64,000 bases of DNA from Escherichia coli. GTDB taxonomy: Bacteria; Pseudomonadota; Gammaproteobacteria; Enterobacterales; Enterobacteriaceae. Shown here in pieces: positions 62,613 to 64,000 of the stretch (positions within the stretch are counted from its first letter, which is position 1; the number at the start of each line of letters is the position of its first letter). The DNA is taken from the NCBI RefSeq assembly GCF_002854065.1, contig NZ_CP024147.1. One strand, 5' to 3'. Made by a program: the position numbers and the translations under genes. The notes below the pieces were generated by a model. That model saw only the letters and a list, made by a program, of their open reading frames with translations, ran no database searches and was not told the origin of the DNA.

Positions 62613-62679
62613 TTATCTCGCGGCGATTTTACTATGGATGTTATTCCCGTAATCATCAACTACCGTTAGTTCATATTCT
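62613..62679 (-). pseudogene. 3' remnant (21 codons + stop) of a gene truncated by IS1; position fits a fimbrial chaperone
   Basis: Minus-strand frame open from the IS1 boundary: EYELTVVDDYGNNIHSKIAAR*, ending just before the usher SD. Confidence 0.35.
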
Positions 62680-62695
62680 GGGTAATGACTCCAAC

Positions 62696-63199
62696 TTATT
62701 GATAGTGTTTTATGTTCAGATAATGCCCGATGACTTTGTCATGCAGCTCCACCGATTTTGAGAACGACAGCGACTTCCGTCCCAGCCGTGCCAGGTGCTG
62801 CCTCAGATTCAGGTTATGCCGCTCAATTCGCTGCGTATATCGCTTGCTGATTACGTGCAGCTTTCCCTTCAGGCGGGATTCATACAGCGGCCAGCCATCC
62901 GTCATCCATATCACCACGTCAAAGGGTGACAGCAGGCTCATAAGACGCCCCAGCGTCGCCATAGTGCGTTCACCGAATACGTGCGCAACAACCGTCTTCC
63001 GGAGCCTGTCATACGCGTAAAACAGCCAGCGCTGGCGCGATTTAGCCCCGACGTATCCCCACTGTTCGTCCATTTCCGCGCAGACGATGACGTCACTGCC
63101 CGGCTGTATGCGCGAGGTTACCGACTGCGGCCTGAGTTTTTTAAATGGCGGAAAATCGTGTTGAGGCCAACGCCCATAATGCGGGCGGTTGCCCGGCAT
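62696..63199 (-). CDS. insB: IS1 InsB (transposase C-terminal part, made as InsAB' by frameshift)
   Basis: 167 aa [51 protein letters not shown]. Confidence 0.95.
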
Positions 63200-63393
63200 C
63201 CAACGCCATTCATGGCCATATCAATGATTTTCTGGTGCGTACCGGGTTGAGAAGCGGTGTAAGTGAACTGCAGTTGCCATGTTTTACGGCAGTGAGAGCA
63301 GAGATAGCGCTGATGTCCGGCAGTGCTTTTGCCGTTACGCACCACCCCGTCAGTAGCTGAACAGGAGGGACAGCTGATAGAAACAGAAGCCAC
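63118..63393 (-). CDS. insA: IS1 InsA (transposition inhibitor)
   Basis: 91 aa [42 protein letters not shown]. Confidence 0.95.
63126..63132 (-). other. IS1 programmed -1 ribosomal frameshift site (A6C)
   Basis: Minus-strand AAAAAAC in the insA/insB overlap. Confidence 0.7.
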
Positions 63394-63426
63394 TGGAGCA
63401 CCTCAAAAACACCATCATACACTAAA

Positions 63427-64000
63427 TCAGTAAGTTGGCAGCATCACCGACTCGTTGATGCTCTGAAGGTATTTTCTCATTTCTGGGGATGTTTTGTCGT
63501 AATCGTGCATAAACTTTTTCAGTTCTTTATACACATCATTATTTAGCTTTACATTGTCGCGAACTAAAGTTTGTACCAATGGTATCAAAATTTCGAAACG
63601 GGACGGTTTGTCATCAATACTTGCCAGGGTTTTGAATACTCCTGTGTATCTGTAACCTAAGTGCTTATTGACAAGTTGAGTGGTCCATCGGCCAGGCATA
63701 ATATCTTCACAGCGCAAATTTTTTATCATGGTATTAGTGAACAATGTTCCAAATATGTTGCTTTTTTTAATGAAGAGGTTGTTTATTTCTCCATTTGAAA
63801 AGATGGTGTTTGATAAGTCGCTTTCAAAACATGATATATTGGATAATACACAACCAAAATAATACCCATGTGAAAGGTTGCTCTTTTTTATTGTTATATT
63901 TGATAGCAACAGTTTATTTATATTAATATTAGGGGTAGTCACATACTGGATCTTTTGCTCGTTAAGTTCATACATCTCCAGCGATTTATTATAGGGTAAT
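63427..64000 (-). CDS. AT-rich ORF with pentapeptide-repeat-like N-terminal region; 5' end beyond window, 3' end cut by IS1
   Basis: Frame open to the window edge (LPYNKSLEMYELNEQ...); repeats NITIK/KSNLS/HGYYF/GCVLS/NISCF/ESDLS/NTIFS; last 7 codons (VMLPTY*) come from the IS1 terminus. Confidence 0.4.
   Translation of the reverse strand, partial: LPYNKSLEMYELNEQKIQYVTTPNININKLLLSNITIKKSNLSHGYYFGCVLSNISCFESDLSNTIFSNGEINNLFIKKSNIFGTLFTNTMIKNLRCEDIMPGRWTTQLVNKHLGYRYTGVFKTLASIDDKPSRFEILIPLVQTLVRDNVKLNNDVYKELKKFMHDYDKTSPEMRKYLQSINESVMLPTY

Follow-up and report, generated by a model that had tools for sequence, protein, structure and literature searches.

An IS1 element without a target-site duplication replaces 1,537 bp of the nhaR-rpsT island in an Escherichia coli genome

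Results

The window, the 64,000-nucleotide stretch of Escherichia coli DNA that we analysed, reaches into the E. coli nhaR-rpsT island, which is OI-1 of O157 (z0020-z0025 of EHEC EDL933; PMC10877973, PMC9387321). In O157 strain 472, CUWW06 and PapRG-06-5, the genes at this locus follow the order nhaA, nhaR, fimbrial family protein, usher, chaperone, major fimbrial subunit, espX1, rpsT, yaaY, ribF and ileS. The window has the same nhaR-rpsT position and gene order minus the chaperone and major-subunit genes: nhaA and nhaR are followed by a minus-strand gene of 319 aa and an 816-aa usher gene, and then by a complete IS1. The G+C content of the island is 29-44%, compared with about 50% around it. 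Coordinates of the features are collected in Table 1, where L002 denotes the intact, IS1-free CUWW06 locus (NZ_CP182139.1 854360-865359) to which all L002 positions refer.

Among 5,426 complete E. coli genomes, the sequence to the left of IS1 was found in 1,209, where it is always annotated as usher and chaperone, and the sequence to its right was found in 3,620, where it is annotated as espX1, a type III effector of the pentapeptide-repeat type. A first-pass annotation of the window had described the right flank as the interior of an unrelated pentapeptide-like ORF. The pentapeptide assignment stands, whereas "unrelated" does not, as espX1 is the natural neighbour of the fimbrial operon, and the break lies not in the interior of the ORF but 37 nt from its 3' end. 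Neither the C-terminal fragment of EspX1 nor the adhesin-like protein of 319 aa had a Pfam match.

OI-1 of EDL933 resembles the window in the order of the tip-adhesin-like gene (z0020/z0021), usher, chaperone, major subunit and espX1, and differs from it in that the chaperone and major subunit are missing from the window. The two also differ in the first of these genes. The 319-aa gene is uninterrupted in the window, whereas its O157 counterpart (L001 2497-3457) is frameshifted into ORFs of 108 aa and 227 aa, which by gene order are z0021 (fmrA) and z0020, respectively. The product of fmrA is a reported repressor of flagellar synthesis (PMC9387321).

Table 1. Features at and around the IS1 junctions, in window positions unless L002 is named
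Feature	Position	Strand	Basis
319-aa gene, annotated "fimbrial family protein" (assumed tip adhesin), last in operon	59178..60137	-	ORF and annotation
Usher gene, intact, 816 aa	60150..62600	-	ORF; PapC_N, Usher and PapC_C domains
Chaperone gene remnant, last 68 nt; left deletion breakpoint (62680 = L002 6000)	62613..62680	-	Mapping onto L002
Complete IS1, IS1B/IS1C sequence type	62681..63448	-	768 bp; both end sequences located, K-12 copies compared
IS1 right inverted repeat, insB-distal, GGTAATGACTCCAAC..., adjoins chaperone remnant	62681..62703	+	End-sequence match and repeat search
insB' frame, DDE transposase part of InsAB'	62696..63199	-	ORF; Pfam PF03400 (2.3e-78)
insA, 91 aa	63118..63393	-	ORF; Pfam PF03811 (3e-21), PF12759 (1.7e-30)
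A6C programmed -1 frameshift motif, AAAAAAC on minus strand	63136..63142	-	
IS1 left inverted repeat, insA-proximal, GGTGATGCTGCCAAC..., adjoins espX1	63426..63448	-	End-sequence match and repeat search
New espX1 3' end within IS1 end, VMLPTY and stop	63427..63448	-	ORF; chimeric protein match
espX1 without its last 37 nt; right deletion breakpoint (63449 = L002 7538); runs off window end	63449..64000	-	
Sites of simple IS1 insertions at other loci	L002 3907, 4168, 4631, 6606, 7020, 7510, 7529, 7850, 7984, 8576, 8860		
Other IS1-bounded deletions: SL124, 829 bp; L009, 1,235 bp; L018, 1,875 bp; K-12 IS1A, 6,505 bp			

The element itself has the length of IS1, its terminal repeats, its two reading frames joined at the A6C motif, and near-identity to reference copies. 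It differs from IS1B/IS1C of K-12 at a single nucleotide (767/768 identical) and from K-12 IS1A at 8 (760/768). The terminal inverted repeats are 23 nt long, imperfect and 78% complementary; each end sequence occurs once in the window with 0 mismatches, and this is the only IS1 copy in the 64 kb. InsA carries the Zn_ribbon_InsA and HTH_Tnp_IS1 domains and the insB' frame carries DDE_Tnp_IS1, and a -1 shift at A6C yields an uninterrupted InsAB' of 232 aa. The first-pass description of an intact element with both terminal repeats, insA, insB and the A6C site was therefore accurate. The transposase is read towards lower coordinates, as is the usher gene. The one attribute of the family that this copy lacks is an 8-9 bp target-site duplication, which defines a simple insertion event rather than the IS1 element itself, and its absence here is explained by the deletion described below.

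The 9 nucleotides to the left of IS1 are CATATTCTG (62672-62680) and those to the right are GACTCGTTG (63449-63457). We found no 8-9 bp repeat common to both flanks and no direct repeat bridging the element, in agreement with the earlier reading of 62672-63457, which is the element plus 9 bp per side, as free of a duplication. This absence is real and does not reflect misread IS1 ends, because both flanks map separately, in one and the same orientation and at about 100% identity, onto the IS1-free CUWW06 locus, where the last base on the left corresponds to L002 6000 and the first base on the right to L002 7538.

The comparison with IS1-free genomes that the first-pass annotation had proposed showed the two flanks to be 1,537 bp apart in CUWW06, PapRG-06-5 and O157 strain 472. 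They are collinear there and point the same way, and the window lacks the DNA between them, which is the arrangement of an IS-bounded deletion. The annotation's view that IS1-mediated deletion or recombination, and not a simple insertion, had taken place is supported by this distance. No repeat was hidden at the junctions and no relative had the flanks contiguous. The missing segment has 36% G+C, occurs nowhere in the window and is replaced by IS1. Both deletion endpoints fall exactly at the IS1 termini, no microhomology was found between the two breakpoints, and each breakpoint lies within DNA of 68-70% AT. AT-rich DNA is the type of target that IS1 prefers.

Outside the deletion, the window and CUWW06 are collinear over 55.3 kb with 12 SNPs and 0 gaps. 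Positions 1 to 62680 gave 11 mismatches in 49,320 bp and 1 in 6,000 bp, gap-free, and the 552 bp that make up the right flank inside the window (63449-64000) were identical at 552/552 bases. The left part of the window (1-62680) spans yjjA, dnaC, thrABC, dnaK, nhaA and nhaR, collinear with CUWW06 and without indels. In the 64 kb, the IS1 and its deletion are the sole structural difference between the window and CUWW06.

Of the chaperone gene (coding sequence at L002 5933-6616), only the final 68 nt survive. The lost interval comprises the remainder of that gene, the major-subunit gene in full, the intergenic region and 37 nt from the 3' end of espX1. It thus contains the fimbrial genes whose absence had already been linked to this event, and the left flank is the tail of a truncated gene, as had been recognised. 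The intergenic region should hold the promoter of the operon. At the other end, EspX1 loses 11 C-terminal residues (MFLMKKISHQD) and gains 6 (VMLPTY) that are encoded by the IS1 end.

The predicted chimeric EspX1, consisting of 462 residues of the CUWW06 protein followed by VMLPTY, was used as the query for an exact-sequence lookup in Logan. It is encoded on a 20-kb contig of ERR3970133 (L022) that is common to three samples; the source of the window may itself be among these. The genes on this contig run in the order ispH, fkpB, lspA, ileS, ribF, rpsT and the truncated espX1, and the contig joins IS1 at the position seen in the window and stops 24 nt into the inverted repeat. Finding the junction between espX1 and IS1 in a short-read contig shows that the right junction is real beyond one assembly. 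As the right flank continues into the native rpsT-ribF-ileS region, the event was a local deletion rather than an inversion or translocation. For the left junction, an exact lookup of the usher protein in Logan returned only contigs with an intact operon. The window allele is absent from the RefSeq complete E. coli genomes and present in public read sets.

We then searched the 5,426 complete E. coli genomes for either window junction, as would be expected of intermediates, and found 0. The only one-piece matches, 74-2 and C3728, carry a different insertion, offset by 9 bp and with the duplication AGGAACATA.

IS1 copies from 16 other loci were mapped onto L002. Simple insertions with 8-9 bp duplications occurred at 11 distinct sites, among them that at L002 4168 in strain 100416, whose background is near-identical to that of the window, and that at L002 8576 in E. 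coli B/REL606. Besides the deletion in the window, the island has undergone at least four IS1-bounded deletions without a duplication (Table 1).

The largest of these, at IS1A of K-12 MG1655 (19796-20563, nhaR-rpsT), represents the same process at this locus taken to its extreme. Like the window, it has an intact 768-bp IS1 in the same island and the same orientation, no target duplication, and flanks that are separated in IS1-free genomes. It differs in the extent of the deletion, which at L002 2636-9140 removed almost the entire OI-1 including espX1, in both junctions, and in its IS1A sequence type.

A second comparison concerns the strains EA7 and SL124. EA7 (L012) carries IS1 as a simple insertion flanked by the duplication TACATCATC (L002 8860-8868). 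In SL124 (L006), the IS1 copy and the right junction are identical to those of EA7, but 829 bp are missing on the left, where the flank ends at L002 8030. The pair resembles the window in lying in the same island and in forming an insertion-then-deletion series of the kind that we propose for the window. It differs in the site (L002 8860), in its IS1 variant, which is 5 nt removed from the copy in the window, and in the strain background, and also in that the intermediate is known for the pair, whereas none was found for the window. EA7 and SL124 provide a direct precedent for a two-step route in this island.

Two apparent regularities were rejected. The first 12 IS1 copies catalogued all pointed one way, which was an ascertainment artefact, since only same-strand pieces had been joined; a query with reversed IS1 recovered numerous oppositely oriented copies, in the B/BL21 lineage, strain C, HB101 and other strains. 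Nor is the idea of OI-1 as a special hot region for IS1 supported, as the yad chaperone-usher operon of K-12 carries a similar load. In this control (L027), at least 30 genomes had IS1 in or beside the operon, counted in the forward orientation only, and they included IS1-bounded deletions (H170/171, H193/194) and a genome with two copies (H184, htrE). The deletions in yad removed yadV-yadN, and near-complete loss of the operon was also seen. IS1 erosion looks like a general fate of AT-rich, dispensable, cryptic fimbrial operons.

Several further features of the island were observed. Three IS1 junctions lie within 36 bp at the 3' end of espX1 (L002 7510-7546): in PSJ-36 a reversed IS1 is flanked by the duplication GAGCTATGT (about L002 7510-7518), the duplication in 74-2 and C3728 occupies L002 7529-7537, and the window junction at 7537/7538 (63448/63449) directly abuts the latter. 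This end of espX1 may be a local micro-hotspot for IS1 insertion. The elements of 74-2 and C3728 (L004 and L005, both at 4001-4768) share an identical site and duplication, and they differ from the window copy at 18 and 36 positions, respectively, with the ends GCATTACC and GCATCACC. Either IS1 entered this site on two independent occasions, or its sequence was changed by conversion between IS1 copies. Conversely, the IS1 sequences of 11PC and PSJ-36 (L007 4320-5087 and L015 3001-3768) are identical, as are several of their island proteins, and the two copies occupy different sites (L002 7850 and 7510) in opposite orientations, which could result from a local hop or from two independent insertions of the same donor copy.

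A widespread variant of the island lacks L002 4802-7243 (2,442 bp, covering the 5' part of the usher gene, the chaperone and the major subunit) and has an IS-free junction; it was seen in L006 (3400-4100), L004, L005, L007, L012, L015, L016 and L019. The operon thus also decays by routes that leave no IS1. In one draft genome (L026; GCA_036586365.1, JAWJUI010000014.1), the contig breaks at position 1 inside espX1, about 1.2 kb from the stop codon, a pattern that would be expected if another repeated element sits in espX1 of this genome.

Discussion

The event described here is a real and ordinary IS1-associated deletion in a variable, AT-rich and dispensable island, of the textbook kind. We consider the most likely mechanism, with a probability of roughly 60%, to be that IS1 inserted and then produced an adjacent deletion by transposing intramolecularly. 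An IS1 of the IS1B type would first have inserted into the AT-rich island, either at the 3' end of espX1 (target GACTCGTTG, L002 7538-7546) or at the 3' end of the chaperone gene (target CATATTCTG, L002 5992-6000). The IS1 transposase would then have carried out an intramolecular replicative transposition from one IS1 end into nearby DNA of the same chromosome, the attacking end being joined to a new site about 1.5 kb away. The segment between, together with one copy of the original duplication, would have been lost as a circle. Either site could be the original one, since the target preference applies equally to a first insertion and to an intramolecular attack. An ancestral simple insertion at espX1 would show a junction in which ATAGACTCGTTG is followed directly by GGTAATGACTCC, and one in the chaperone gene would show GGCAGCATCACC followed directly by CATATTCTGATGCG.

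Adjacent deletions promoted by IS1 are classical in the gal and plasmid systems, where they arise by intramolecular replicative transposition. These deletions, and those of IS150 (PMC11708052), share with the window an intact IS, a deletion that starts from the exact IS end, and the lack of both a duplication and microhomology. They were watched as they formed, whereas the window presents the end product only, in a natural isolate. In the long-term evolution experiment, 14 of the 14 events that combined an IS and a deletion without a duplication proved to be an earlier insertion followed by an adjacent deletion, and all 14 involved IS150 (PMC11708052). Transposition of IS1 within the chromosome is replicative, and the transposition frequency of IS1B/C-type copies in K-12 is reported to be extremely low (PMC12428005). 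As such copies are reportedly nearly inactive in K-12, the transposase may have come from another copy in trans. We infer the order of the events, and that transposase rather than recombination drove them. The two-event route is favoured over one of three events because CUWW06 is IS1-free in the island and differs by only 12 SNPs in 55.3 kb, so that little time has elapsed.

The alternative that survives best requires that two like-oriented IS1 copies inserted separately, the chaperone gene receiving one with CATATTCTG as its duplication and espX1 the other with GACTCGTTG, and that RecA-dependent homologous recombination between them then deleted 1.5 kb and left a single hybrid IS1. This weakens the case for adjacent deletion, because recombination between two directly oriented copies produces exactly the observed order of L002 6000, IS1 and L002 7538 too. 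A transient two-copy state is not far-fetched in an island that readily accumulates IS1 insertions: IS1 has struck it often, at the 11 catalogued sites of simple insertion, and in strain 100416, which is near-identical, a copy of the IS1B type has independently entered the usher gene. In the control operon, one genome (H184) even holds two IS1 copies in htrE, and duplications are known to go missing when IS copies recombine (PMC11708052). Nevertheless, three events would have to fit within a divergence of 12 SNPs per 55 kb from an IS1-free relative, none of the 5,426 complete E. coli genomes has either or both of the insertions, and the intact state of the EA7/SL124 pair holds a single IS1 in the island. 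Recombination between two copies is thus a credible but unlikely origin of the allele.

A one-step event, in which the two ends of an incoming IS1 join targets 1.5 kb apart and the interval is deleted at once without a duplication, would agree with the IS1-free state of the closest relative, CUWW06, and with the lack of an intermediate among the 5,426 complete genomes, although such a lack in a sparse sample counts for little. Duplication-free IS movements coupled to large rearrangements have been proposed for IS5 and IS481 (PMC11708052). They are not established for IS1, the 14 of 14 deletion-associated events of IS150 turned out to be two-step adjacent deletions (PMC11708052), and the EA7/SL124 pair shows the two-step route at work in this very island. 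We therefore regard a one-step origin as very improbable. If true, it would make the window a natural IS1 example of the kind of movement proposed for IS5 and IS481 (PMC11708052).

An assembly artefact, either the collapse of two IS1 copies around the 1.5-kb segment or a misjoin at the repeated IS1, appears less probable still. IS copies are classic sites of collapse, but the junction between espX1 and IS1 recurs in the independent short-read contig common to three Logan samples, the flanks keep their native order and orientation, and two unobserved insertions would still be required. A simple insertion whose duplication decayed by point mutation is a general possibility only, and it is refuted by the mapping of the flanks, at 100% and 99.98% identity, to positions 1,537 bp apart in IS1-free relatives.

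Whichever route produced it, the deletion accounts for the altered EspX1 C-terminus of this strain. It would also account for a dead fimbrial operon, in which the usher and the 319-aa gene remain but the chaperone, the major subunit and, presumably, the promoter are gone. More speculatively, loss of the operon promoter could change motility through the 319-aa gene, the O157 counterpart of which includes fmrA. The allele adds a further dated stage to the erosion of the nhaR-rpsT island by IS1, a well-known process that has the IS1A locus of K-12 as its end state.
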